A DNA stretch of 64,000 nt, from positions 337,618 through 401,617 of the forward strand of contig CBDDQA010000003.1 of the NCBI GenBank assembly GCA_965232605.1, given 5' to 3'. The position numbers and the translations under genes are program-made. The notes below the pieces were generated by a model. The model had not been told where the DNA came from, did no database searches, and was given only the letters and a program-made list of their open reading frames with translations. Below are positions 4,628 to 59,478 of the stretch, one piece after another. Source of the DNA: an uncultured Candidatus Binatia bacterium (GTDB taxonomy: Bacteria; Desulfobacterota; Binatia; Bin18). How positions within the stretch are numbered: position 1 is the stretch's first letter; the number at the start of each line of letters is the position of its first letter.

Positions 4628-4706
4628 GTTATGCCGCCTTCCTGGGAAAGGTTCCGTCTCCACAGTGTTGCGAGACGATAGCCCTTCGCCTACAATCCGC
4701 CCACAT

Positions 4707-4791
4707 GCCGGAGTGGTGGAACTGGTAGACACATGGGACTTAAAATCCCATGGGGCTTTGCCCCGTGCGGGTTCGAGCCCCGCCTCCGGCA
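4707..4791 (+). tRNA. tRNA-Leu, anticodon TAA (type II, long variable arm)
   Basis: Acceptor GCCGGAG/CTCCGGC + discriminator A; D-arm GTGG..AACTGGTAG; anticodon stem TGGGA/TCCCA with loop CTTAAAA (U33, TAA, A37); variable arm GGGGCTTTGCCCC; T-arm GGGTTCGAGCCC; no encoded CCA. Confidence 0.8.
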
Positions 4792-4836
4792 TGGTAGAAA
4801 TGACTTTCCCTCCCGTTTCCGCCGCAGCCGACCTAG

Positions 4837-10601: not shown

Positions 10602-12155
10602 CTACGCATTCGCGGCGTAGAAGATAAACTCCACGTCTCCGATACGGACCTGCATACCGTCTCTGAGAAGATTTTCGGCAACCTTTCTCCCATTGATGTA
10701 GATGCCGTTTCGGCTCTGTAAATCGAGCAGCACATAGCCCTGTTTGACTTTTTTTATGCGCGCGTGTTCGCGCGATATCGAGGAGTGGAGAATAATCGCC
10801 TCGCATTCCTCTCCACGACCAATCGTCATCTCATCGCGGGAAAGCGCGATTTCGCGCGGCGCTTCTTCGAACGGGCTGTGGCGCACCAGGCGGGCGTATG
10901 GCGCAGCGGTCTTCGGCACGGCCGGCTCAGGGACTGCGTTCTGGCCGGTGGAAGCGGGGCTGCGGGTGGCCGTCTTCACCAGACTCAACACCTCAGCCGG
11001 AATCTCATTCAGTCGGACGCGCGCCAACAGCAGCAACCCTCCGGCGGCCAGGAGCGGCACCACCATATTCCACACCCCATAGGCAATAACGGTTTGCGGC
11101 TGGGTGGAACCCGGTCCTGAACTGCTGGGAACGACGATCGCGCCGCCAATCCCACGCACCTGATAGGACACCCGCGCCTCCCCTTCCCCGTTCGGATGCT
11201 GAAGGGTCAGCACGACGTCGCGTTCCGCCCCGTCCTCGACCGGGCGGGGGCTGGTATACGTCAGGAAATACTGCGAGGCGAGCGAGCGGCCGATCTCGCT
11301 GATCAGTTCGGGAAAGCGTTCTCCTTCACTGACGATATTGTAATGCCGCCCGGCGCTCTCCTTGGCGATCCGATGCAGGTCGGGGGCCATAAAGGGCGGC
11401 GGAGAGATGGCATAGACGTTCAGGCTCGCCTTTTTGATTTCCGCCAGGACTTCCGCACCGGACAGTTGGGTGATCTCTCGACCGTAGGGATTGTTTTTTT
11501 CCGAGCCGTCCCCGCGCGTATGATTGGGGGCGTCGGTAATCAGGACGAGGACCGCCTGGGCATCGGGCCGAAACGGAAAGCGGCTGGCCAGCAGCAGCGC
11601 ATCGAGCGAGTTCTCCGGGATATCCCCCCCGCCGGCTGGGCGTAGCGCGCCAACCCAGCTTTTGAACTCTCGGGCGCTCCGGGTAAACACCCGCTCGTCC
11701 CGAATCACATAATCCTCAAACGTCACCAGGCCCAGGCGGTAATCCCGGTTGGCCTTGGCCAGACGGTCGGCAAAATCAATGGCCGCTTCTTTCATCCCGT
11801 CAATAAACGGCCCCATGCTTTCCGTGACATCGAAGACCACCACGATATCGACCGGCCGGCCCTGTTCTTCGCCCCGGAAGTCAATGATCCGGGCGTCCTG
11901 CCCGTCCTCCTGCACGCTCACATGCTCCGGCGTGAGTTGTCCGACCGGCTGCCCACCCAAATCGGTCGCATTAAAATACAGGCCAACGGCGCCGCCATTG
12001 GTAAAATTCTCCAGTTGAGGGTTGGTGACAGAGACAACCACCGAATCGGCCGCAGAGACGCGCGGTGTCAACGGCGAGCAGAAGGCAAGGCAAGAGATGA
12101 ATACACACACAGCTTGGGTGTAGCTCTGCCGAGAGGACCGGGCTTTCAATCGCAT
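10602..12155 (-). CDS. signal peptide + extracytoplasmic vWA domain (MIDAS DVTESM) + TM helix + cytoplasmic FHA domain protein
   Basis: 517 aa; vWA motifs VVVFDVTESMGPF..GGGDIPEN..LITDA; TM VIAYGVWNMVVPLLAAGGLLLLA; FHA C-terminus MTIGRGEECEAIILHSSISREHARI...NGIYINGRKV; GAGGAG RBS. Confidence 0.85.
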   Translation of the reverse strand: MRLKARSSRQSYTQAVCVFISCLAFCSPLTPRVSAADSVVVSVTNPQLENFTNGGAVGLYFNATDLGGQPVGQLTPEHVSVQEDGQDARIIDFRGEEQGRPVDIVVVFDVTESMGPFIDGMKEAAIDFADRLAKANRDYRLGLVTFEDYVIRDERVFTRSAREFKSWVGALRPAGGGDIPENSLDALLLASRFPFRPDAQAVLVLITDAPNHTRGDGSEKNNPYGREITQLSGAEVLAEIKKASLNVYAISPPPFMAPDLHRIAKESAGRHYNIVSEGERFPELISEIGRSLASQYFLTYTSPRPVEDGAERDVVLTLQHPNGEGEARVSYQVRGIGGAIVVPSSSGPGSTQPQTVIAYGVWNMVVPLLAAGGLLLLARVRLNEIPAEVLSLVKTATRSPASTGQNAVPEPAVPKTAAPYARLVRHSPFEEAPREIALSRDEMTIGRGEECEAIILHSSISREHARIKKVKQGYVLLDLQSRNGIYINGRKVAENLLRDGMQVRIGDVEFIFYAANA

Positions 12156-12181
12156 GAGAGTCTCCTCATTGTCCGACCTGC

Positions 12182-13039
12182 CTACTCCTTGCCGGCCCGC
12201 TCTCGGAAGAGGAACAGGGTTCCGCCGACCTCTACCCGGTCGCCGTTTTTCAGTTGGACCGGCTGGGTAACCGGAGTCCGGTTGACGCTGACCTGGCCCT
12301 CGTTTTTGGCAAGCACAAAAGTATGCTGACGTTTTTCGACCACCGCGTGCAGGTTGGCGATGGAACGGTCGCCAAACAGGCCGACATCACTTTCTTCGGC
12401 TCGACCGATTGTCGTTTTGGGCTTGGTCAGATGGTATTCACGGCCTTCACGGGCATTGCGGCTTTGCGAGCGAATCACCATAAACCAGCCGCGCTTCAAT
12501 ATCTCGCTGACCAGACCAATCCAGAGACCGATCATGGCTCCCAAAATGGCCAGGGCAACCCCGCGACCAGCCGTCTGCGGCAGGAGGGCGGTGACCAGTT
12601 GAAAGAGCGCCCCCCCGATGGCTCCGCCAATGCAGCCACCAATCGCGCCATTGCGTAAACGGACCAGCGATTGGCCGACCCAGCCGGCTCCCAGTCCGAC
12701 GGCCAGCCCAAAAATCCCCCAGCCGATAACGCGCCCGCCAAGACCGCCAAACAGGCCAAACACCAACTCTCCCATGAGGAGGCCAATCGCCCCGCCCACC
12801 AGACCGGCGAGTCCACCCAGCTTCACCCCCTGCCAGGTCTTGTTCTTATGCCCCGCGCTGAGCCCTTCAATGGCCCCCATGAACGCGCCAACACACACAC
12901 CCGTCACGCCACCCAGGGCCATGGCCCGGAGATAGACATTCCCCATCGCGGCCAAGGGGTCAGCCACGGCCCAGCCGGCAAGACCGCCCAGGAGACCGGC
13001 TCCGCTATACAGGACAAGGCGTTCGCGTGAAAGTTCCAT
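12182..13039 (-). CDS. polytopic glycine-zipper membrane protein with C-terminal FHA domain
   Basis: 285 aa; multiple Gly/Ala-rich TM segments then TIGRAEESDVGLFGDRSIANLHAVV...VSVNRTPV..LKNGDRVEVGGTLFLF; GGAGGAG RBS. Confidence 0.8.
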   Translation of the reverse strand: MELSRERLVLYSGAGLLGGLAGWAVADPLAAMGNVYLRAMALGGVTGVCVGAFMGAIEGLSAGHKNKTWQGVKLGGLAGLVGGAIGLLMGELVFGLFGGLGGRVIGWGIFGLAVGLGAGWVGQSLVRLRNGAIGGCIGGAIGGALFQLVTALLPQTAGRGVALAILGAMIGLWIGLVSEILKRGWFMVIRSQSRNAREGREYHLTKPKTTIGRAEESDVGLFGDRSIANLHAVVEKRQHTFVLAKNEGQVSVNRTPVTQPVQLKNGDRVEVGGTLFLFRERAGKE

Positions 13040-21785: not shown

Positions 21786-23027
21786 ATGCTCAACCCTTAT
21801 CGAGTCCTTGACCTGACAACCGAACGCGGATTGCTGTGCGGCCAGATTCTCGCCGACCTGGGCGCTGACGTGATTAAAATCGAACCCCCCGGAGGCTCCT
21901 CGGCCCGCAAGCTGGGACCCTTCTATCAGGACCAGGAGGATGCGGAAAATTCGCTCTACTGGTGGGCCTATAACCGCAATAAACGGGGGGTCACCCTCGA
22001 CATAACGCGCTCCGAAGGCCAGGATATGCTGCGGCGCCTGGCCCAGGGCGCAAAATTCCTGATCGAATCGGACAACCCCGGCACCCTGGCCCAATACGGC
22101 CTGAGCTATGACGACTTGGCGGCAGACAATCCGGGGCTGATTTATGTCTCGATTACGCCGTTTGGACAAGACGGGCCAAAGGCCAGCTATGCGGATAGCG
22201 ACCTGATTATTCTGGCCAGCAGCGGGCCGCTCGTCATTACCGGGGACGAAGACCGTCCGCCCGTCCGCCTGAGCGTTCCCCAGGGCTATCTGCACGCCAG
22301 CGCCGCCGCGGCCCCGGCCGCGCTGATTGCCCTGTACGAATCCCATCAATCGAACCGCGGCCAGCATATCGATATTTCCGCCCAGCAGGCCGCGGCCCAT
22401 GCAACCCAATCGACCATTCTCTCGGCTCCGCTCAACGATGCGGAAACCCGCCGCATGGCCGGCGGGGCAAAAATGGGACCGCTGGAAATCCGCCTGCTCT
22501 GGCCGGCGAAAGACGGCCATGTTTCGATTGCCTATCTGTTTGGCTCGGCCTTTGCCCATTTCACCAAGCGTCTGATGGACTGGATCTATGAGGAAGGGTT
22601 TTGCGATAAAGAAGTCCAACAGATGGACTGGGTTGGGATGGGCGGCGGCCTCTTTGGTGGCGACCCGCAAACGATTGAAGACTATGAACGCCTCAAACTG
22701 ATCGTTGAAGACTTCACCAAAACCAAAACCAAGGCGGAGCTGTTCCAGAACGCCCTGGACCGTGGCCTGCTCGTCGCTCCGGTCACCACGATTGACGAGG
22801 TCGTCGAGAGCAAGCAGTTGGAGTCCCGTCAATACTGGACCACGGTTGACCATGAGGAGGTCGGCAAAGCGTTTGCCTATCCCGGTCCGTTTGCCAAGTT
22901 CAGCGAGCAGCCGATTTCCTATAAGCGTCGTCCGCCGAAGATTGGTGAGCACAATGCCGAGGTCTATGCTGAACTCGACCTTGACGCCCAAGCGTTAGCG
23001 GAATTGCAGGGCAAAGGGATCATCTAA
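21786..23027 (+). CDS. CoA-transferase family III (CaiB/BaiF)
   Basis: MLNPYRVLDLTTERGLLCGQILADLGADVIKIE... typical N-terminus; 413 aa. Confidence 0.85.
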   Translation: MLNPYRVLDLTTERGLLCGQILADLGADVIKIEPPGGSSARKLGPFYQDQEDAENSLYWWAYNRNKRGVTLDITRSEGQDMLRRLAQGAKFLIESDNPGTLAQYGLSYDDLAADNPGLIYVSITPFGQDGPKASYADSDLIILASSGPLVITGDEDRPPVRLSVPQGYLHASAAAAPAALIALYESHQSNRGQHIDISAQQAAAHATQSTILSAPLNDAETRRMAGGAKMGPLEIRLLWPAKDGHVSIAYLFGSAFAHFTKRLMDWIYEEGFCDKEVQQMDWVGMGGGLFGGDPQTIEDYERLKLIVEDFTKTKTKAELFQNALDRGLLVAPVTTIDEVVESKQLESRQYWTTVDHEEVGKAFAYPGPFAKFSEQPISYKRRPPKIGEHNAEVYAELDLDAQALAELQGKGII

Positions 23028-23054: not shown

Positions 23055-24296
23055 ATGGCAGAGGGACAACAGACCGGCAGCGAAAGCAATCAAGCCCTGG
23101 CTGGGGTCAAGGTGCTCGATTTCATGTGGGCGATGGCCGGCCCCGGCTCGACCCGTATTCTGGCCGACTACGGAGCGACCGTTGTGCGGATTGAATCCAC
23201 TACCCGCTTTGACGCGGTGCGCATGGTCGGTCCCTTTCAAAACAAGCAGCCCGGCCCGAACAATTCCGGTCTGTACAATAATATGAACACCGGCAAACTG
23301 CCGATGACTCTGAATCTGTCCAAACCGGAGTCGCGTGAGATTATTCTTGATCTGGTGCGCTGGGCCGATGTCGTGACCGAGTCTTTTTCTCCCAAAGCCA
23401 TGCGCGAGTGGGGTTTTGACTACGAGTCGCTCGCCAAAATCAAGCCCGATATCATCATGCTCAGCACCTGCCTGATGGGTCAGACCGGCCCCCACTCGCA
23501 CTTTGCCGGGTTCGGCAATCTGGCGGCTGCCGTCTCGGGCTTCTTCGACCCCACCGGCTGGCCCGACCGCGCACCCGCTGGGCCGTTCGGAGCCTACACC
23601 GACTATATTGCCCCGTGGTATAACGCCGCGGCCGTGCTGGCGGCATTGGAGCATAAGCACCAGACCGGCAAGGGCCAGCATATCGACCTGGCGCAGGCCG
23701 AAGCCTCGCTCCATTTTCTGGCGCCGTTTCTTTTAGACCAAACCGTCAACGGACGAACCCAGACCCGGATGGGCAACCGGGATATGAACTTCGCCCCGCA
23801 CGGGGTGTATGAGGCCGAAGGAGAGGACCGCTGGGTGGCGATCGGCGTGGAAACCGACGACCAGTGGCGCTCGCTGTGCGAGACCATGAACCGCCCGGAC
23901 CTCGGCAGTGACGAGCGCCTGGCCACCGCCAAAGGCCGGTTGGACAATCAGGACGAAATCGACACGGCCGTCAACGCCTGGAGCAGCCAACTCAGCCCGT
24001 ATGAGGCCGAAGAACAGCTTCAGGCCAAAAACGTCCCGGCCAGTGCGGTGGAAACCATCAACGAGCTGTACGAGGACAAGCAGCTTCAGCACCGCGAGCA
24101 CTTCGTCGACCTGGAGCATCCCGACTTCGGCACGACCACGGTCGAGGGCACCCGCTTCAAATTCTCCCGCACCCCGGCCCAGATCAACCCGGCGGCCCCG
24201 ACGCTGGGACGTGAGAACCAGAACGTACTGGAGAACATTCTGGGCTATAACGAAGAGAAGATCACCGAGTTAGTGATTGCCGAGGTGCTGGAGTAG
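23055..24296 (+). CDS. CoA-transferase family III (CaiB/BaiF), tandem paralog
   Basis: GVKVLDFMWAMAGPGSTRILADYGATVVRIE; 413 aa. Confidence 0.85.
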   Translation: MAEGQQTGSESNQALAGVKVLDFMWAMAGPGSTRILADYGATVVRIESTTRFDAVRMVGPFQNKQPGPNNSGLYNNMNTGKLPMTLNLSKPESREIILDLVRWADVVTESFSPKAMREWGFDYESLAKIKPDIIMLSTCLMGQTGPHSHFAGFGNLAAAVSGFFDPTGWPDRAPAGPFGAYTDYIAPWYNAAAVLAALEHKHQTGKGQHIDLAQAEASLHFLAPFLLDQTVNGRTQTRMGNRDMNFAPHGVYEAEGEDRWVAIGVETDDQWRSLCETMNRPDLGSDERLATAKGRLDNQDEIDTAVNAWSSQLSPYEAEEQLQAKNVPASAVETINELYEDKQLQHREHFVDLEHPDFGTTTVEGTRFKFSRTPAQINPAAPTLGRENQNVLENILGYNEEKITELVIAEVLE

Positions 24297-24772: not shown

Positions 24773-24898
24773 CTACGAATGTCGATCCGGCTCCTCGCGC
24801 CGTTCGCCGTAGGCGCGCTTGGTCCACCAGTAGGCGAACGCGCCGCACAGGAAGAGGATGCCGCCGTACCCGACCGAGAGCATCAGCTCGCCGCTCAT
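24773..24898 (-). CDS. 41-aa membrane protein translationally coupled to the SSS transporter gene
   Basis: MSGELMLSVGYGGILFLCGAFAYWWTKRAYGERREEPDRHS; ATGA start/stop overlap with upstream gene. Confidence 0.4.
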   Translation of the reverse strand: MSGELMLSVGYGGILFLCGAFAYWWTKRAYGERREEPDRHS

Positions 24899-26541
24899 GA
24901 CAAGCACCACCGGGCCAGACACAGGGAGTCGGCCTTGTGCCCGACCGCCTGTTCGTACGGCCACACGTAAAACACGATCATGAGTATTGTCACGACCGCG
25001 CCACAGACCATCAAACCCTTCGCGAACCACAAGGTTGTGGCGGTCAGGGAGGGATCGTATTCCGCGGGCGGCGTTTGATGGATTTGCCGGCGATACAGAT
25101 GTTCCTCCTCGGTGACCCGGCCATTGCGCGATACGAGAACAATCGTGATGAGGCTCAAGACGATGCCGATCACGAAGGGGTCGAGATACACCGGCAGGAA
25201 TATCACCTCGAAGACCGACAGGACCTTCGGGATCAGGTTGCCGACAAAGCCGACGACAATCCCCCAAAAAGCGCCGTCTGCCGTGATGCGTGTACTCCAC
25301 ACGCTCATGAAGGCCATCGGTCCCCACGACGATGCAAACAGCGTTGCCGCAAAATAGCTGATCATCATGATCGCGGGCGGCTGAAAATACGCGACGATCA
25401 GGATGACGGTCCCGACCGCCAGCATGGTGGAGCGGCTCAATCGGAGCTTGCGGCGTTCGTCGCCTTCGCCAATCTCGACCAGATCGTTCGTCGCGCTGAA
25501 TCCGATCAAGGACAGAAACGTCGACGCCGAGGACAGAGCCGCAGCCACCACGCCGGTCATGAACAACACGCCCGCATAGGTCGGCATGGTGTTGAAAGCC
25601 GCCCAGATCATGGCCCTTTCGTTGGGCTCGATATCCGGGTTGAGGAGATTGACGGCCGCGGCGGACACCACCAAGGCCCAATACAGCACCACGACCGACG
25701 CGCTCGCCAAGCAGGCCGACCGCATCACGGTGTGCTCATTTTTCGCCATCAGGTAGCGGCTCGATTGCCACGGGCTCACCGCAATCGTGAACGCCCACGC
25801 GATCCCGAGCACGAGACCCCAGCCAACCGAATCGAACGGCGTCTGCCAGCGCGCATCGGCTCCGACGACACCGTGCCAGGAGATGATTGCCGGCTTGGCT
25901 TCGTAGACCGCCAGGGACTCGATGGTGGCGAACCATCCCCCGGTCTCACCCAGGATGTAGTAGAGCGAGAGGAAACCGACGCAGGTGAACAGCAGGTACA
26001 TGACGGTATCCGTCAGCACCACGCCTCTTGAGCCGGAGTAGATCGTGAACGAGGTATAGCCGACCCAGACGATCAGCAACGTCACCTCATAGGGAATATG
26101 CATCACTTCCGATATCGCCAGTGATGCTCCCTGGGTCACCGCCAGCAAATAGGCGGTGACCCCCCCGATCACCGTCACACCGGCGGCAGCCTGAACGCGC
26201 CGACTGTTGAAGCGCTTGCCGAAGAACTCGGCCACGGTTATCGCCTGGCTGCGCCTGACATAGCGGCCGAAGAACGCCGCGCCCAGGACGTAGCCGACGA
26301 TATTGACCCCGACCAGGATCAGCAGGATCGCGCCGTGGCCCTGATAGGTAAACCCGGTTTCACCCAGGAAGGCGGCGGTGCTCAGATAGCTCGCGACCAG
26401 GGTGCCGGCTATCAGCAGGGTCGAGCTGTCACGCCCCGCAACGAAATAATCATCGACATCTTTGACCCGCCGGCCGGCGTAATTGCCGATCAGCAGATAG
26501 ATCACGATGCTCGTGATGATGCCGAAGGCGTAGGGGTTCAT
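24895..26541 (-). CDS. sodium:solute symporter (SSS) family transporter
   Basis: 548 aa, ~13 TM segments, MNPYAFGIITSIVIYLLIGNYAGRRVKDVDDYFVAGR typical SSS N-terminus; ATGA overlap with upstream gene. Confidence 0.85.
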   Translation of the reverse strand: MNPYAFGIITSIVIYLLIGNYAGRRVKDVDDYFVAGRDSSTLLIAGTLVASYLSTAAFLGETGFTYQGHGAILLILVGVNIVGYVLGAAFFGRYVRRSQAITVAEFFGKRFNSRRVQAAAGVTVIGGVTAYLLAVTQGASLAISEVMHIPYEVTLLIVWVGYTSFTIYSGSRGVVLTDTVMYLLFTCVGFLSLYYILGETGGWFATIESLAVYEAKPAIISWHGVVGADARWQTPFDSVGWGLVLGIAWAFTIAVSPWQSSRYLMAKNEHTVMRSACLASASVVVLYWALVVSAAAVNLLNPDIEPNERAMIWAAFNTMPTYAGVLFMTGVVAAALSSASTFLSLIGFSATNDLVEIGEGDERRKLRLSRSTMLAVGTVILIVAYFQPPAIMMISYFAATLFASSWGPMAFMSVWSTRITADGAFWGIVVGFVGNLIPKVLSVFEVIFLPVYLDPFVIGIVLSLITIVLVSRNGRVTEEEHLYRRQIHQTPPAEYDPSLTATTLWFAKGLMVCGAVVTILMIVFYVWPYEQAVGHKADSLCLARWCLS

Positions 26542-28241
26542 GGTACGGCCTTGGCCGTCCAGTCACCGTGCGGGCCATCGTTACTCATGACGTACGCATT
26601 GTTCCGGTTCGGGTCGCCTGCAACGGCGATCAGAAACTTCGAGGCCTCGGTCACGATCGGCACGAGGCGTTGCGGGTCGTTGGACTCGCCGAAGACCGGC
26701 GGGATCAGACCCTCGGTCGCCAGTTCGAACAGGGTGCGGCCCCCCGCATCGATGTTGCTCCACTCGCCGATGAACTGCTCGAACCTGGCCGCCGGCAGCC
26801 GGGCCTGCACGAACAGCGCCCGCTTGACGTCATCCTTGCCCCAGCCGGATCGGGCGAAGGTGCGCGCCAGCATCGGGGAAAGGATCAACAGCGGTCGATA
26901 ATGGCCCTGTCCGAGTCCGTAGATGTGCGCGAGGTCCCAGCCACTGACTCGAACGAGGCCGTCGGCCAGATACGGCACGAGCGCCTCGCCCGTCGATCCG
27001 AAGACGCTGCCGAGGATCAGGCTGCTATTCATGCGGACCATGGTGACCACGTCGTCGTCCCGCCCGAACCCGAACTCCGCACTCAGCGGTTGCCAGCCGA
27101 TGTCGGTCAGCGTCTGCTCATCTTCGGCCAATACCACCCGGGTGCTGTTACCGAACGTGGCCTTGTCGTGTTCGTCGACGGTGAATCCACAGACATTGCG
27201 CAGGTACAGCCGGAGCCATCGGGCGACGCTGGTATTGGCATGGGCGCCCTCCCGAAGGACACCCTGCCGGGCGTTGAAGCCGAGTTCGGCCATCGACGGC
27301 CCATTAACGATGACGAGGGCGTCGGCCCCGGTGGTATTACCCGAGTGCTCGACGCCGTAACCGGGATCGGCGATGATTTCGGCGAGCGCCAAGAGCACGG
27401 GCAGGTGCCGGGGCTGACAGCCGGTCATGACGGCATTGACGGCAACCGACCAGACCGTGATATCGCGGCCCGAGGGTCGGGCGGTGCCGATTACTCTCCA
27501 GGGGTCATCGTTCAGCGCGGCGAGAAACGCCGCGACCCGGTCCTGGGTCGGCGGAACGACCGGCAGTCCATCGCTCCAGCCCTCAACGGTGAAACGTTCG
27601 TTGATCTCGTCAATCGTTCCCGTGGCGACGACGTCCAGTGGCGCGGGCTCGGCGGCAGCGGCCTCACCGACGACCGGCGCGCTGGTGAGGCCGGCTATGA
27701 TCTGGTCGAGCGTCGCGTCGCGCAGGGAACCGATCATCTCGTCGTAGCTCTGCGCGTCCACGTGTCCGCGCAGCACGCCGAGGGGAAGCCCGTCGAATCC
27801 CGCGCCGCGACCAGTGGCCGCCGCCTGGCGTTCGAACCCTTCGCAGACCAGCGACACCGATGGTACCCCGGCGGCTTCCGCGACAACCGACGCCCGCATC
27901 ACGGCGGGCGTACAACTCCCTCAACATCCCACCCCGGAGACGACGGCGTCGATACCGCGGTCGCGCAACCGGTTGGGGAGGGCGGCAATCACCTCGGCTT
28001 CATCACCCCCGTGCGTGTTGCCGAATTCATCGTACCCGACGATTTCGATCCCGGTGAAGCGGTGCTGCAGATCTTTCTCGATGACCGGAAAAAGCTCGTG
28101 ACCGCGAAACAGGAAATCCCACAGAAACCCGACGCGTTTGCCCTCGAGCGTGTCGAGCCGCTCGGCGAGATGCCGTGGCTGTACCGCGAGCGGCGATTTC
28201 GGCCAGACGACTTCGTAGTGAATTGCGCTATGTGAACTCAT
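26538..28241 (-). CDS. UGSC-family selenoprotein domain fused in-frame to a ~450-aa uncharacterised domain (GWSDGLPVVPPT family); in-frame TGA at comp(27921..27923) read as Sec
   Basis: Track ORFs 27921..28241 and 26538..27902 are in the same frame, separated only by TGA; read-through gives ...AVVSGVGC-U-GSCTPAVMRASVV...; SECIS-like hairpin follows. Confidence 0.6.
27890..27911 (-). promoter_or_regulatory. SECIS-like hairpin 9 nt downstream of UGA (ACGCCCGC-CGUGAU-GCGGGCGU)
   Basis: Perfect 8-bp stem, GU-containing 6-nt loop, position typical of bacterial SECIS. Confidence 0.5.
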
Positions 28242-28374
28242 TGCCCTCTCCCCTGATTAGGCTTGCGGCCCTGAAGGCCGGAGTGCTGCAAACCCGTCAT
28301 TAACGGGTCTCTTCCTGACAGCCGTCCAACGCCGATGCGGCAGGGCCGACCCGTCGGCAGCCTTCCACGAGCGC

Positions 28375-29916
28375 TCACAACGGCCCACGCAAGGTCTCGA
28401 ACGCATGCCCGGCGCGCAGCACGACGTCGTCTTCACCGTAGCGTCCCGTGATCATCATACCCACGGGCAGGCCGTTCGACACACCGGTCGGCACGCTCAT
28501 TGACGGGTGGCTCGTCGCATCGAAGGGCGCGGTGTTGCCAATCATGTCGAGCGTAAGTCCCATGACGACTTCACGCGAGGCGTCCGGTGGCGGGATTCGG
28601 TGGGCTTTCATCACGGTCGTCGGCATCACGAGCAGGTCGCAGGTATCGAACGCGCGGTCGTAGGCGGCGCGGAGCGTGCGAACGAGGTTCTGTGCCTTGG
28701 CGGAATAATAGTTGCCGTAACGGGCACGCATGACCTGGGCGAACAGCAGCACGGTCTTGGCCATGTCCGGCAGCTCTGCCGCCCGGGTTTTGCGCGCCGC
28801 CTGAAAGAAGCGGATCGCTCCGAGCGGGTGGTGGCCATCTGCGTTTCCGCCGGCCGGCCCCTGATCGCTCCACGTTGACAGCGTCCCGTCGACGGAACTT
28901 GCGAACATGATCTTCAGGGCCTCGGTGTGCATGGGGATGGAGATTTCTTCGACCCCGGCCCCGGCCTCCTGCAGCCGCCAAGCCGCGGCCATCACAGCTT
29001 CATCCACATCCGCTTCCGAGCCCGGCGCGCCGAAGCCTTCGCGCACGATACCGACCCGCAGCCCCGCGATCCCCTGACCGACGAGTTCGCTATAGGGTTT
29101 TGCCGGCAAGGCCGCCACCTGACGCGGGTCGAGGCCGTCGTCGTAGCCGGCGATGACTTCGAGCAACAGGGCGCAATCGAGGCTTGAGGCCGCCATCGGC
29201 CCGAGGTGATCGATCGTGTGCTCAATGGGTCCGGCGCCGGTATAGGGCACGAGGCCGTGAGTCGGCTTGATCCCGACGCAGCCAGACCACGAACTCGGCA
29301 TGCGTACGGAGCCACCCTGGTCGCTGCCGATCGCCATGTCGCATTCACCCGTCAGAATCAATGCGGCGCAGCCGCTCGACGAGCCTCCGGTCATGAAGTC
29401 GGGGTTGCGCGGGTTCCTCACCGGACCCGACGCCGACGTATGGCTGCCGCCGGAATAGCAGAAGTTTTCGCACACGGCCTTGCCGACCACTTCGCCGCCG
29501 GCATCGAGCACGCGGGTCACGACGGTCGCGTCTTCGTCGGCGATAAAGCCTGCGTACAGCGCCGAGCCGTTCAGCATAGGCAGGCCCGCAACGCTGATGT
29601 TGTCCTTGATGGCGACGCGTTTGCCGGCGAGCTTGCCGGACGCCGCGCCTTTGACCGAACACTTCCACTGCCAGGCACCGTAACGGTTCTCATCGCCAGT
29701 CGGGCGATACCCCTCACCGCGCGGGTATTTCGTCGGCAGGGTCGGCGCGTCCATCGCGTCGATGGCATTGTAATCGTCGACGAGCCTGCCCATCGCGGTT
29801 GCGAAGAAATCCAAATCGCCCCGGTCCAGATCGAGAAATAAAGCCTGCGCGGCCGCCCGCAGTTCGCTGTCTGTCGGCGCACCTACGGGGCTGCCGGTTT
29901 TATCGGAACTCATCAT
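28375..29916 (-). CDS. amidase (amidase-signature family)
   Basis: 513 aa; GGSSSG and Ser-cisSer-Lys context (KDNISVAGLP...MTGGSSSGCAA). Confidence 0.85.
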   Translation of the reverse strand: MMSSDKTGSPVGAPTDSELRAAAQALFLDLDRGDLDFFATAMGRLVDDYNAIDAMDAPTLPTKYPRGEGYRPTGDENRYGAWQWKCSVKGAASGKLAGKRVAIKDNISVAGLPMLNGSALYAGFIADEDATVVTRVLDAGGEVVGKAVCENFCYSGGSHTSASGPVRNPRNPDFMTGGSSSGCAALILTGECDMAIGSDQGGSVRMPSSWSGCVGIKPTHGLVPYTGAGPIEHTIDHLGPMAASSLDCALLLEVIAGYDDGLDPRQVAALPAKPYSELVGQGIAGLRVGIVREGFGAPGSEADVDEAVMAAAWRLQEAGAGVEEISIPMHTEALKIMFASSVDGTLSTWSDQGPAGGNADGHHPLGAIRFFQAARKTRAAELPDMAKTVLLFAQVMRARYGNYYSAKAQNLVRTLRAAYDRAFDTCDLLVMPTTVMKAHRIPPPDASREVVMGLTLDMIGNTAPFDATSHPSMSVPTGVSNGLPVGMMITGRYGEDDVVLRAGHAFETLRGPL

Positions 29917-29958
29917 GCTCCTCCCTTATAGCCTTCGTACATTAAAACCTTGGCCTTG

Positions 29959-30099
29959 AGTCGTCTACCTCTTCCGGTGTCGATTGAAGGCCAGCCTCGA
30001 CACCGAGATGTTCAAACAGTTTATGGATAACCAGAGCTTCAAGCGCTGGCTGACCGATACGGTGTTCGGGCTTGCCCACGAGCAGGCCGGCGTGGGGTG
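29959..30099 (+). pseudogene. C-terminal remnant of type I restriction enzyme R subunit (HsdR)
   Basis: Translation ...ASLDTEMFKQFMDNQSFKRWLTDTVFGLAHEQAGVG* resembles conserved HsdR C-terminal helix (F.Q.MDN..F.RWL.D.VF); no upstream body. Confidence 0.4.
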
Positions 30100-30204: not shown

Positions 30205-31073
30205 GGTGTGTCATCAGTTAAGGAGGATGACCGAGGCGGCGAGATAGATCGCGCCCAGAAAGCTAACGGCGCGTTTGTCATAGCGCGTGGCAAGCGCCCG
30301 ATATTGTTTGAGTTTGGCGAAGAAGTTTTCAATCAAATGACGCGCTTGATAGAGGTGCGTATCATAGGCGCGGGGCTGGGTCCGATTGGCCTTGGGGGGA
30401 ATCACAATCGTCACCCCCGCCTGCTCTAACAGGTCTAGGACGCGCGCTTGAGCCTCATAGGCGCGATCCGCCAGCACGGCCTGGACGTGCGGCACTAAGT
30501 CCGGGAGCAGCGCATCCGCCCCGGCGAGGTCCGAGGCGTGGCCGGGCGTGAGATGGAAGCTGGTCGGATTGCCCAAGGCATCACAGGTCGCATGGAGCTT
30601 GGTACTCAAGCCCCCGCGCGAGCGCCCGAGGCATTCCGTCCTTTGGTCCCCCCTTTTGCCCCGGCCGCATGTTGATGCGCCCGGATGATCGTGGCGTCAA
30701 TCATAGCGTATTCGTTGTCAGCGTCAGCCGCGAGGTGCTCGAACACCCGCGCCCACACCCCACTCCGACTCCAGCGCATATGCCGGGTATGAATCACCCG
30801 AAAATCCCCAAACCGCGCCGGCAGGTCCCGCCAGGGAATGCCCGCCCGATAGCGGTATAAGACCGCTTCCACAAACAACCGGTTATCCTGCGCCGTGCCC
30901 CCCACATGCCCCGCCCGGCCCGGCAGCAACGCCTCAATCCGCTCCCACTGGTCCTCCCGCAGAGCATACCGTCTCGCCATTGTCGCTCCTCTCTCCTCTC
31001 GTGCTGACCAAGGAAGTATACCGCAGCGAGACTGGAAAGCCGACCAGAGATGCGTACTAACTGATGACACGCC
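30205..31073 (-). mobile_element. IS5-family insertion sequence, copy 2 (869 bp, inverted relative to copy 1), perfect 4-bp TSD CTAG (30201-30204 / 31074-31077)
   Basis: Same terminal repeats as copy 1; OrfA/OrfB ~88%/~85% aa identical to copy 1 by visual alignment. Confidence 0.85.
30214..30980 (-). CDS. IS5-family transposase OrfAB (orfA comp 30606..30980, orfB comp 30214..30609)
   Basis: MARRYALREDQWERIEALLPGRAGH... and MSTKLHATCDALGNPTSFHL...KLKQYRALATRYDKRAVSFLGAIYLAASVILLN. Confidence 0.85.
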
Positions 31074-32290: not shown

Positions 32291-32645
32291 TGGTGGAGGC
32301 GGCGGGAATCGAACCCGCGTCCGAAAGTAGTCCACTCAAGGCATCTACAATGCGTAGCTCGTATTTTGATCTCATCCTCGGGCCTCCTACGAGCAGGATG
32401 CCCTCAGACCAGCCAAAGTAGAGTTTCGGGCGCGCACCCTTCGGCACGATGCAAACCCTATCCCGATTTGTGTCGCCTTAGCCGACCCTACGGGCGCGGA
32501 TCGGTAAGACGCAAGCTGCTCTAGGCAGCAAGAGCGTAGTCAAAATCGTCTGCAGTTAAATTGCAGCCTGTCCGTTTTACGGGCGGGACAGAACCCCGGC
32601 ATGCAGCCTTGGCTTTCTAGCCCCCGTCGAAACCAGATCGCCCCC
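32291..32645 (-). ncRNA. ssrA: tmRNA (SsrA), tag peptide reading frame A-DDFDYALAA-stop
   Basis: 5' end GGGGGCGAUCUGGUUUCGACGGGGG, 3' tRNA-like end GGACGCGGGUUCGAUUCCCGCCGCCUCCACCA; internal GCAGACGATTTTGACTACGCTCTTGCTGCCTAG; adjacent smpB. Confidence 0.8.
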
Positions 32646-56885: not shown

Positions 56886-56997
56886 CGCAACGCGGGCTTG
56901 GTGTTGTCACACATTTAACGATTTTTGAGGCCGACCAGCTTGGCCAGCAGGTTCGCCAGACACGCAACGCGGGCTTGGTGTTGTCACGCATTTAACG
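56886..56997. repeat. two copies of ~35-nt direct repeat CGCAACGCGGGCTTGGTGTTGTCAC(A/G)CATTTAACG, period 77 bp
   Basis: 56886-56920 and 56963-56997, one mismatch. Confidence 0.4.
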
Positions 56998-57022: not shown

Positions 57023-58105
57023 CTAACGACGAAACTCTTGAATGGACGTGGCCGGCCGGCCGTCCTTGAGGGCAATCTGACGGGTCACGGAGCGGGTCAT
57101 GGCCCCGAACGTGGGCATCCAGCACGAGTGGCGACCCGGACCGCCGACGACAAGAATCATGAGCCGTTCCGGCTGGCGAATCAGCGGGATGGCGGCGGCG
57201 GCGGGAAAGGCCTCATCGGGGGTAAATCCCATGCCGATCATGCCGCCGGCCTCCCATTGTTCGCGCGGCACCCGGGCGTGCTCAAACACATAGGCGCGGA
57301 TGTCCTCTTTTGAGAGGCCGTCTCGGGCCAGGATTTCGGCGTGCTCCGGTCCGAGCGCCAGAATCGGCTCACCGAACGCGTAGGCGTTATTCGAGCCCAT
57401 ACCGGCCATGGTGCTGGCGATGGTCGTCAGAATCCCCGGCGCGGCACTGCTGATATGGTCGTTGATATTATGCGGCCCTTCCGCCCCGCACACCGTGACC
57501 GTGCTGGTCTCGGCTGCAAGGCCGCGTTCGACGTGCAGTGGCCCCCAAGGGTTTTCTTCCTCGTTCTCGGCAATGCAATAGCTGTACTTTGCGGGTTGGC
57601 CCTGGGTTGAGCGGTCCAGCATACCCGGCGTTCCCCCGCCGACATTCAGCAGGACCAGACGAATCGCCCGGCCGATTGTGGCGTTTGGCCGCCAGCCCTG
57701 GCCAAAGGCGTTATAGCGCGAGTTGACGCCGATTTCCGTCGCAATCGGGCCGTTGAGAATCAGCAGCGGCGCGCAGGGATGGGTGGTGCTCTGGACTCCG
57801 TACAGATTGAACGGGCCTTCGAGCAGCGCCTCGACCGCGGCAATAATGACCGGAAAGTATTCGGGGACACAACCGGCCATCACTGCGTTCACGGCCAGTT
57901 TTTCCAGGGTGGCCAGGCCGTATTTGGGCGGTATCGGTCCCAGGACGTCTTGGGGAGCGCGGTCCGTCCAGGCCAGCATCGTTTCCACCCGCTCTGGTGT
58001 GGGCGGAATAATCGGCAGACCGTCGGTCCAGCCCTGGTCGTAAAACCAGTCGTTGACAGCTTCGAGAGCGTCGTCCAGAGAGATGCGGTCTGATTGGAAA
58101 TGCAT
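57023..58105 (-). CDS. uncharacterised protein, paralog of the C-terminal domain of the 26538..28241 gene (GWTDGLPIIPPT family)
   Basis: MHFQSDRISLDDALEAVNDWFYDQGWTDGLPIIPPTPERV...LAVNAVMAGC...LLILNGP; start trimmed to ATG 58105 because track N-terminus (MTPLPRPSPSRGEG) is a translated REP element. Confidence 0.7.
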   Translation of the reverse strand: MHFQSDRISLDDALEAVNDWFYDQGWTDGLPIIPPTPERVETMLAWTDRAPQDVLGPIPPKYGLATLEKLAVNAVMAGCVPEYFPVIIAAVEALLEGPFNLYGVQSTTHPCAPLLILNGPIATEIGVNSRYNAFGQGWRPNATIGRAIRLVLLNVGGGTPGMLDRSTQGQPAKYSYCIAENEEENPWGPLHVERGLAAETSTVTVCGAEGPHNINDHISSAAPGILTTIASTMAGMGSNNAYAFGEPILALGPEHAEILARDGLSKEDIRAYVFEHARVPREQWEAGGMIGMGFTPDEAFPAAAAIPLIRQPERLMILVVGGPGRHSCWMPTFGAMTRSVTRQIALKDGRPATSIQEFRR

Positions 58106-58168: not shown

Positions 58169-58768
58169 TTACGCTGACACCCGCTCGATCTTTTTCTCCA
58201 TCGGCTTGAGAAACCGCCCGCGATACGCGTCGGCCAACTGTTCTGCCGGCTGGGTCAGAATAGCCAGAATTTCATCCACCACGGCCGCGGCCTTGGCCTG
58301 CACCACCTGCGGCGTATTGCCGGCCAGGGGATGGGGAATCACGGCAATGGGCACCCCGCTCATACCCAGGGTGCGGGACTCGGCCCGACCGAGCGGAGCA
58401 AACTCGTCGCTGCAAATAATGGCGGTCGGAACGCCTTGCTTTTCCAGTTCAATGGTGTCGTGGAGACCCCACGACGTACACGAGCCTCAATCGCCTATGG
58501 CCACGACAACCGCATCACAGGTTGACAGGCGGGCCAGAACTTCCTTGGGTGCGCCGAGCGAGGCGTTTTTCTCACCCTTGATGACGGCGAAGTCCCCGCA
58601 ACGTTCGTGCAGCAGCGTTTCCACCTGTTCGAGCAGCAGGCCGGCGTTGGCCTTCCGGTTATTCAGAAAACCAATGGTTTTCCCGCGCAGGCTCCCCTCT
58701 CGTCGGGCAAGCGGCAGGTCACCGGCTTGCGCCTCTCCAATTGGGCTGAGGACTTCAATCTGTCCCAT
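58169..58768 (-). CDS. UGSC-family selenoprotein (~200 aa), in-frame TGA comp(58487..58489) read as Sec
   Basis: ORFs 58487..58774 and 58169..58363 share one frame; read-through ...AVVVAIGD-U-GSCTSWGLHDTIELEKQGVPTAIICSDEF...; GGGAGG RBS before ATG 58768; homologous to 27921..28241 ORF. Confidence 0.65.
58457..58475 (-). promoter_or_regulatory. SECIS-like hairpin 12 nt after UGA (GUCGUGG-GGUCU-CCACGAC)
   Basis: 7-bp perfect stem; GGUC loop resembles the E. coli fdhF SECIS apical loop. Confidence 0.5.
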
Positions 58769-58872
58769 ACGCACCTCCCTTGCTCTTCGCTATATAGTCC
58801 AACCCTCTTGCCCGTGCAATGGAACGCCGGGTACAGTTTCGACCATCAGGCCATCACATCAGGAATAGCGCC

Positions 58873-59478
58873 ATGGCGAACGTCAAAATCCCGGTTTACT
58901 ACGATTATGCCTCTTCCCTCAGCTATATCGCCAAGCGCGTGCTGGAACAGCTTGACGGTCAACTCGCAATCGAACTGTTGTGGAAAGGCCTCAACATTGC
59001 TCGCCGTCACCAGGGCTGGAAGAACGGCGAGATGATCGGAGACGAGGCCAAAGGCAAAATTGTTCGCATCTCGCGCGAGACCGGCGTCCCGCTGCGCATC
59101 CCGACAAAATGGCTGGACTCGGCCCATGCCTTGGAAGCGGCCGAATTCGCCAAAGGCCACAATCTGTTTGCCGCCTATCACGAGGCGATTTTTGTGGCCG
59201 CGTTTGAGGCAGAGCAGGATATTGGCGAGCGGTCTGTTTTGCTTGGCGTGGCCGAACAGGTGGGCTTACCCGTGGCGGAATTGGAGCAGTCGCTACAATC
59301 CGGCGAACTGACCCAGCGGGTCCGGGCAACCGAACAGGAAGCCGCCAGGTTTGGCATAGTCGGCTATCCCACCTTTCTGCTCGGCGAATTTCCGTTGATT
59401 GGCATTCAGCCGGCGGAAACCATGCGCCTGCTGATTCAGCGCTATGTTGATAAAGCGCGCGAGCAGGTGGGGCATTAG
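58873..59478 (+). CDS. DsbA-like thioredoxin-fold protein lacking the CxxC motif (HCCA-isomerase-like)
   Basis: [20 protein letters not shown]... (SSLS in place of CPxC) ...[10 protein letters not shown]; divergent from UGSC gene. Confidence 0.65.

Follow-up and report, generated by a model that had tools for sequence, protein, structure and literature searches.

The stretch of DNA analysed here (the window) comprises 64,000 nucleotides (nt) of an uncultured Candidatus Binatia bacterium (assembly GCA_965232605.1, contig CBDDQA010000003.1, positions 337,618 to 401,617 of the forward strand) and carries a gene of the UGSC selenoprotein family, in which the UGSC domain is fused to a large, uncharacterised partner domain. 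An earlier reading of this stretch, made from its sequence only (the sequence-only reading), had claimed that two open reading frames (ORFs) on the minus strand, 27921..28241 (106 aa, ATG start) and 26538..27902, are parts of one gene, interrupted by a single TGA that encodes selenocysteine (Sec). Inspection of the frame bears this out: both ORFs are in the same frame, TGA 27923..27921 is the sole stop between them, and readthrough yields 567 codons with the context GVGC-U-GSCT. The motif C-U-G-S-C-T, obtained when the TGA is taken as Sec, was likewise correctly recognized, with U/C-G-S-C at a conserved position. The fusion gene exhibits the following features:

26538..28241, minus strand: full coding sequence of the selenoprotein that joins UGSC and partner, 567 codons with one for Sec, stop TGA at 26538..26540
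27921..27923, minus strand: in-frame TGA read as Sec (U107) in the motif C-U-G-S-C-T; the TGA is conserved, with cysteine (Cys) in the same column of homologues
27890..27911, minus strand: hairpin of the selenocysteine insertion sequence (SECIS) type, ACGCCCGC / loop CGUGAU / GCGGGCGU
27684..28211, minus strand: UGSC domain, residues 11-186, PF24696, predicted Rossmann/flavodoxin-like α/β fold
26541..27620, minus strand: partner domain, residues 208-567, no Pfam or NCBIfam model, signature GW[ST]DGLP[IV][IV]PPT
27417..27419, minus strand: codon of C275 (motif AVNAVM[AT]GC), a residue that does not vary in alignments A1, A2 and A4

One alternative is that the TGA is a genuine stop, in which case the hairpin would be incidental and the locus would consist either of two genes or of a pseudogene derived from a fused one. 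The gene callers of every database agree on a stop (120/120 best protein matches begin just past the TGA, at M-R-A-S), the hairpin does not fold significantly as a single sequence, and the window is devoid of Sec machinery. On the other hand, comparison with relatives argues strongly for a sense codon. A tblastn search of a sample with one genome per species found matches at at least about 600 places, and in the best 80 loci, which were analysed, the alignments run across the TGA, from query residue 1 or 9 to residue 566. The codon at the U position was counted in 79 genes from 78 of these loci (of the remaining two, one ends at a contig edge and one is unresolved); it is TGA in 79/79 fused orthologues, and Cys, TAA or TAG in none of them. 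These TGA-conserving genes span at least seven phyla. The closest relative among the best 80 loci, L001, is encoded in a Candidatus Binatia chromosome (OZ244620.1, 94% identity), while others come from Acidimicrobiales (60-67% identity) and, at a greater distance, from Alpha-, Beta- and Gammaproteobacteria, Methylomirabilota, Chloroflexota and Acidobacteria (44-53% identity). On either side of the TGA, substitutions with respect to L001 fall preferentially at third codon positions, and the 18 nt from the TGA to the earliest restart codon encode the conserved peptide G-S-C-T-P-A. The UGSC domain spans the TGA, because PF24696 covers residues 11-186, and a genome-wide reassignment of the codon can be dismissed, as TGA serves to terminate other genes of the window.

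Further evidence against a genuine stop comes from the RNA hairpin. The perfect 8-bp stem-loop that the sequence-only reading had placed 9 nt after the TGA is present at that position, with its 5' arm at 27911..27904, the loop at 27903..27898 and the 3' arm at 27897..27890. Compared with shuffled sequences, neither this hairpin (z = -1.1) nor that of a second UGSC gene in the window, described below, is significant when folded as a single sequence, and the support for it is therefore taken from conservation. Its conserved core is a 6-bp stem GCCCGC/GCGGGC located 11 nt past the UGA, the pairs of which are paired in 97-100% of 80 sequences. In the 79 genes the hairpin is conserved even at synonymous sites of the stem, which are essentially fixed (Pro CCC 77/79, Ala GCC 78/79, Val GTG 79/79, Arg CGG 78/79), whereas neighbouring Gly, Ser and Ala codons outside the stem use all synonyms. 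Covariation is limited: one stem pair exhibits five double changes from G-C to A-U, with little other variation. A SECIS covariance scan, also proposed in the sequence-only reading, gave a negative result, as the Rfam SECIS family has no match at the gathering threshold, nor on either hairpin region up to E 10.

Orthologues with a genuine stop and neither Cys nor Sec at this position had been named as the finding that would speak against recoding; what was found, in addition to the TGA in 79/79 genes, is a set of more distant, full-length fusions (563-588 aa) in which Cys takes the place of Sec. They were identified in an exhaustive search of cluster representatives at 50% identity and include P0245 (context GIGC-C-GSCTPAVLR) and P0262, P0267 and P0303 (context GA-C-GSCTPAV); in P0244 and P0366 Cys is aligned at the UGA column too. 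The DNA of L081 and L084 reads TGC at the Sec codon. In L081 the peptide T-P-A-V-L-R-A is kept but encoded with ACC CCG GCA, which breaks the stem, and L084, the second Cys-form gene, retains most of it; because there are two such genes only, this comparison of stems is anecdotal. In the UGSC alignment A5, C107, G108 and C110 are invariant. On these comparative grounds the fusion gene is a real selenoprotein gene with UGA107 decoded as Sec, and we give the genuine stop almost no credence.

A protein search revealed 2,633 relatives, of which the 120 best matches are 64-94% identical, cover about 80% of the query and start with M-R-A-S. All 120 start just past the TGA, therefore every gene caller stopped at the Sec codon, and the fusion subfamily is systematically mis-annotated, with no fewer than 120 clusters (90% identity) affected and matches in at least about 600 species genomes. 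The earlier claim that this locus is a natural fusion stands, with the qualification that such a fusion is not peculiar to the locus: it represents a large family that gene callers routinely truncate.

The window also contains a locus in which the two parts of the fusion are encoded separately:

58169..58774, minus strand: UGSC selenoprotein gene not fused to the partner, its TGA (58487..58489) in the context D-U-G-S-C-T, PF24696 E = 2e-50
58457..58475, minus strand: hairpin of this gene, GUCGUGG/GGUCU/CCACGAC, conserved in relatives
57023..58105, minus strand: separately encoded partner protein of 360 aa, directly downstream of the UGSC gene

The UGSC protein of this second locus passes the NCBIfam equivalog model NF041046 (142.6 bits vs a cut-off of 125). 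Its hairpin represents a class of the form GUCGUGG / NGUNU / CCACGAC, conserved in L086, L088 and L089, and GU is found at loop positions 2-3 in both this class and that of the fusion. The homology that had been noticed between the downstream part of the fusion and the protein encoded at 57023..58105 was confirmed over the C-terminal ~345 aa of the former, with 29% identity and E = 5e-43. In three unrelated loci of the split type (3/3), as in the second locus of the window, a UGSC(Sec) gene lies directly upstream of the partner gene; in these three, UGSC is seen as two short ORFs, both with UGSC matches, that is, as a gene split at the Sec codon. The order UGSC-then-partner is that of L086-L089. 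The Rosetta-stone argument of the sequence-only reading, from fusion in one locus to partnership in the other, holds accordingly, with a split UGSC(Sec) gene preceding the partner gene in 4/4 loci, and as far as gene order can demonstrate it, UGSC and the partner domain are obligately coupled genetically.

Divergent from the separately encoded UGSC gene is a gene for a DsbA-like thioredoxin-domain protein (58819..59478, plus strand, PF01323 E = 2e-24), an arrangement that also exists in L086 and L087; where UGSC and its partner are two genes, this protein may act as an additional redox partner. On the other side of the locus, between the partner gene and ychF, there is a 35-nt direct repeat (56886..56920 and 56963..56997, two copies with 97% identity, 77 nt apart), which is found nowhere else in the window.

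In the model search proposed by the sequence-only reading, the fusion exceeds the gathering threshold of the Pfam UGSC model PF24696, with 96.8 bits vs 25 for residues 11-186 (E = 2e-27; 100.6 bits for the UGSC domain alone). It misses the equivalog cut-off of NF041046 (43.5 vs 125 bits), which is why we regard the fused UGSC as a divergent subfamily. A thioredoxin-like fold and redox role had been guessed for UGSC in 2008 (PMC2398784); the thioredoxin fold was not found, the predicted model being Rossmann-like. In the model, Sec is located in a loop that leads from a β-strand to the N-terminus of a helix, with the U-x-x-C pair at the helix start. The full Cys-form fusion was modelled by AlphaFold2 with a predicted local distance difference test score of 92.7 and a predicted template modelling score of 0.93, a confidence over the whole chain that speaks for one functional unit.

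The A-G-U-G-T-C motif of selenoprotein B of D-proline reductase (PrdB) is similar to that of UGSC, and this likeness prompted a direct comparison. The PrdB query retrieved genuine PrdB proteins (88% identity, PF07355). In BLASTP it is aligned with the separately encoded UGSC protein of the window, with the U/C positions in register (E = 6e-4), and hhalign of UGSC vs PrdB gives 95.4% probability and E = 1.7e-8 over 46 columns that span Sec. These columns comprise a helix, a strand, G-U-G-[ST]-C, a helix and a G-[IV]-P-[ST] strand. Judged from these alignments, the UGSC active-site module remotely resembles that of selenoprotein B of D-proline reductase (PrdB) and of glycine/sarcosine/betaine reductase (GrdB). 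The Pfam model GRDB (PF07355) ends at its position 345 of 347 at residue 148 of PrdB (P0478), three before Sec 151, and it seems that PF07355 was built from sequences cut at the Sec codon, which hides U-G-T-C from domain searches.

The partner domain, in turn, has no match in Pfam or NCBIfam even up to E 10, and its profile retrieves nothing among solved structures up to E 1. It is modelled confidently, and no convincing structural relative was found; the nearest structural matches, class I fumarate hydratase and the Toblerone-fold cyclic amide hydrolases, are not convincing as relatives. The domain is nonetheless very widespread: the portion of the fusion that follows the TGA has matches in 3,892 clusters (50% identity), and in a search with the separately encoded partner 7,998 of 8,000 scored candidates have E <= 1e-3, all of them unnamed and none with a Pfam domain. 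Longer multi-domain relatives (700-1250 aa) contain no informative extra Pfam domains. Four proteins of about 710-740 aa (P0317, P0341, P0350 and P0367), in which the partner domain is matched in two stretches and no Pfam domain is found, may be tandem partner-domain duplications without UGSC. Among 65 diverse sequences the signature W-x-D-G-L-P-x-x-P-P-T is near-invariant, and C275 is the only cysteine that is invariant across fused and unfused partner domains; altogether about 40 positions of the 360-residue domain are invariant or near-invariant. In the models, C275 is found at a helix end in a confidently folded region.

The Cys in question bears on the possibility of a true analogue of protein B of glycine/D-proline reductases, in which self-cleavage between G274 and C275 would generate a pyruvoyl group that binds an amine, while Sec would cleave the C-N bond reductively. 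The UGSC active-site module is aligned with PrdB, the single invariant Cys of the partner is preceded by Gly, amidase and small-solute transporter genes are present near some loci, and the pyruvoyl group of PrdA is known to derive from Cys (PMC11229817). However, the partner domain has no detectable relation to PrdA/GrdE and no Pfam match to PF09338 (Gly_reductase, the pyruvoyl-forming partner), the predicted position of C275 would not be in an exposed processing loop, and no PrdH-like maturase is encoded among the recurrent neighbours. A pyruvoyl-dependent analogue of this kind thus appears quite unlikely to us.

The fusion gene is flanked in the window by the following genes:

24895..26541, minus strand: sodium:solute symporter (SSS) gene, PF00474 E = 7.5e-27, its start overlapping the fusion stop (ATGA)
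24773..24898, minus strand: 41-codon ORF MSGELMLSVGYGGILFLCGAFAYWWTKRAYGERREEPDRHS that overlaps the SSS stop with its start (ATGA) and probably encodes a small membrane subunit
28375..29916, minus strand: amidase-signature-family gene, PF01425 E = 2e-86, NF005565 654 bits vs a cut-off of 545, 133 nt upstream of the fusion

The ATGA coupling of the fusion with the SSS gene, the 41-aa ORF and the preceding amidase had all been reported earlier and are all present in the sequence; a promoter and terminator scan of 24.5-30.3 kb revealed nothing above the shuffled background. To the coupled symporter and the amidase we owe the suggestion of a small imported substrate in this lineage. They are rejected as family-wide neighbours: counted up to 10 kb on either side of the 80 fetched loci, the combination of amidase and SSS transporter is found in one (1/80), namely in L001 of the closest Binatia relative.

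Two other neighbours are recurrent. A gene for a thioredoxin-reductase-like flavoprotein with a CAWC motif is present in 23/80 Sec-form loci, often directly adjacent to the fusion, and adjoins both Cys-form genes examined (2/2); by our own rough estimate, a single-copy gene would be expected by chance within 10 kb of a given gene in about 0.5% of genomes. The best NCBIfam model of this flavoprotein is TIGR01292, with 231 bits under a cut-off of 343. In 25/80 loci the gene immediately downstream, of the same strand, encodes another partner domain that is not fused, and it is commonly followed by the flavoprotein gene. In L042, for instance, the fusion is followed by an unfused partner-domain gene (11860..12957) and a thioredoxin-reductase-like gene, and 24 other loci are alike; L044 has two Sec-containing fusion genes in one locus (10298 and 13806). 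A substrate-binding protein of the TctC/Bug type is encoded in 21/80 loci and a family III coenzyme A (CoA) transferase in about 10/80, while other catabolic enzymes occur near the fusion irregularly; transporters of the TRAP and ABC types are co-encoded at other loci. Just past the symporter of the window there are two tandem genes for CoA-transferase family III (21786..23027 and 23055..24296, both on the plus strand).

Directly upstream of the amidase-fusion-symporter cluster lies an IS4/IS5-type transposase split in two ORFs (DUF4096, 30606..31070, and DDE, 30214..30609, minus strand). The cluster region 26000..30000 has a G+C content of 0.64-0.65 vs about 0.60 elsewhere, and beyond Binatia the nearest relatives of the fusion among the best 80 loci are those of Acidimicrobiales; the cluster may have been horizontally acquired. 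Only two structured RNA genes were detected in the window, those of a tmRNA (32291..32645, minus strand, tag peptide ADDFDYALAA) and of tRNA-Leu(UAA) (4706..4792, plus strand).

In other genomes the fusion is occasionally found close to the Sec machinery, with selD, selA or selB up to 10 kb away in 6-7/80 loci each. Together with weak Foldseek matches that include selenophosphate synthetase (E ~0.3), this would be in line with a role in selenium or sulfur trafficking, e.g. in delivering or reducing selenium species for SelD, instead of in catabolism. Selenoprotein genes, however, often cluster with sel genes simply through dependence on them, and more than 70 of the 80 loci have no sel gene nearby. 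Moreover, the Foldseek matches are not significant, and there are Cys forms, which may belong to genomes without Sec usage, so that trafficking is in our opinion a very improbable function.

The mechanism that we consider most likely is that of a reductase that depends on Sec and is regenerated by a flavoprotein using NAD(P)H. With UGA107 decoded as Sec under the direction of the hairpin 9-11 nt downstream, the UGSC and partner domains would in this scheme form one enzyme. The partner domain would bind the substrate, with C275 possibly acting in catalysis or as a relay, and the selenolate would carry out a redox or nucleophilic step, ending as a Se-S bond with C110 of the U-x-x-C pair. A dedicated thioredoxin-reductase-like flavoprotein would then re-reduce this bond with NAD(P)H. 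In the window the fusion gene would be co-transcribed with the symporter, behind the amidase. Overall, we favour, with some reservation, this explanation of the locus as one 567-residue Sec enzyme composed of UGSC and a substrate-binding partner and recycled by a flavoprotein.

A less specific role is conceivable as well, namely that of a generic thiol/selenol oxidoreductase (in antioxidant defence or in the reduction of disulfides, sulfoxides or peroxides), to which the partner would contribute as a scaffold or regulator. A U-x-x-C pair with a thioredoxin-reductase-like neighbour is typical of such systems, the heterogeneous neighbourhoods are as one would expect of a housekeeping function, a DsbA-like gene adjoins the separately encoded UGSC gene, and a thioredoxin-like redox role was proposed already in 2008 (PMC2398784). 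Yet a partner of 360 residues with about 40 invariant or near-invariant positions, always coupled with UGSC, is more than a scaffold would require; UGSC is modelled with a Rossmann-like and not with a thioredoxin fold; and genomes often contain at least two copies, located in catabolic clusters together with transporters. We therefore consider the generic role rather unlikely.

Several observations weigh against the flavoprotein-recycled reductase and its affinity with selenoprotein B, and should be set beside it. None of selA, selB, selD and the Sec tRNA is encoded within the 64-kb window, and neither is a thioredoxin-reductase-like protein. Apart from the flavoprotein and the second partner-domain gene the neighbourhoods are heterogeneous, and therefore provide no clue to the substrate. 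The similarity between PrdB and UGSC is limited to the 46 columns, and GRDB (PF07355) does not match UGSC up to E 10, probably because that model stops just before Sec. In hhalign the partner domain reveals no relation to the pyruvoyl subunit PrdA (5%). Finally, no experiments exist on any member of the UGSC or partner families, and reviews up to 2026 give the function of UGSC as unknown.

The locus is not new in kind, as a 'UGSC/Unknown_1' fusion was published in outline by Zhang & Gladyshev in 2008 (PMC2398784) and UGSC has been catalogued already in Pfam (PF24696) and NCBIfam (NF041046). In view of the size of the family, Unknown_1 is probably the partner domain described here. In the literature that we searched, the similarity to the PrdB/GrdB active site and the Rossmann-like fold appear to be absent, and the same appears to be true for the partner without structural relatives, for the recurrence of flavoprotein and second partner genes and for the scale of mis-annotation. 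At the level of the window, the value of the analysis is a corrected annotation, with one 567-residue selenoprotein and a second Sec gene at 58169..58774. More generally, the PrdB/GrdB-like site, the flavoprotein and the partner genes define a concrete three-component system, which can be expressed and assayed.

We may speculate further, as a tentative possibility that we hold to be on the unlikely side, that UGSC, its partner and the flavoprotein constitute a widespread and unrecognised aerobic counterpart of the selenoprotein-B reductases of Stickland fermentation, in which a subunit with a new fold replaces the pyruvoyl proteins PrdA/GrdE, and NAD(P)H is consumed in the reductive cleavage of a small organic substrate by the selenol. 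If true, this would provide a function for a selenoprotein family that is highly abundant in aquatic environments, and for a partner family that comprises over 3,800 clusters at 50% identity.

Compared with known systems, the fusion shares with the UGSC family the U-G-S-C motif, the interchange of Sec and Cys and the abundance in metagenome-assembled genomes from water and soil. Its hairpin is similar to the SECIS of E. coli fdhF in being a short G+C-rich stem-loop about 11 nt past the UGA, located within the coding sequence and carrying G-U in the apical loop, but differs from SECIS elements of this bacterial type in that its sequence is unrelated and no Rfam model matches it. With PrdB/GrdB, the fusion has in common the active-site module (strand, G-U-G-[ST]-C, helix, G-[IV]-P-[ST] strand) with aligned Sec columns, and the cooperation of Sec with a second subunit encoded adjacently; glycine reductase, for its part, draws on reductant from the thioredoxin system. 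On the other hand, PrdA/GrdE are pyruvoyl subunits to which the partner domain bears no relation, and UGSC fusions are hosted mostly by Actinomycetota, Proteobacteria and Binatia of aerobic or facultative lifestyle, as opposed to the Stickland-fermenting Firmicutes.

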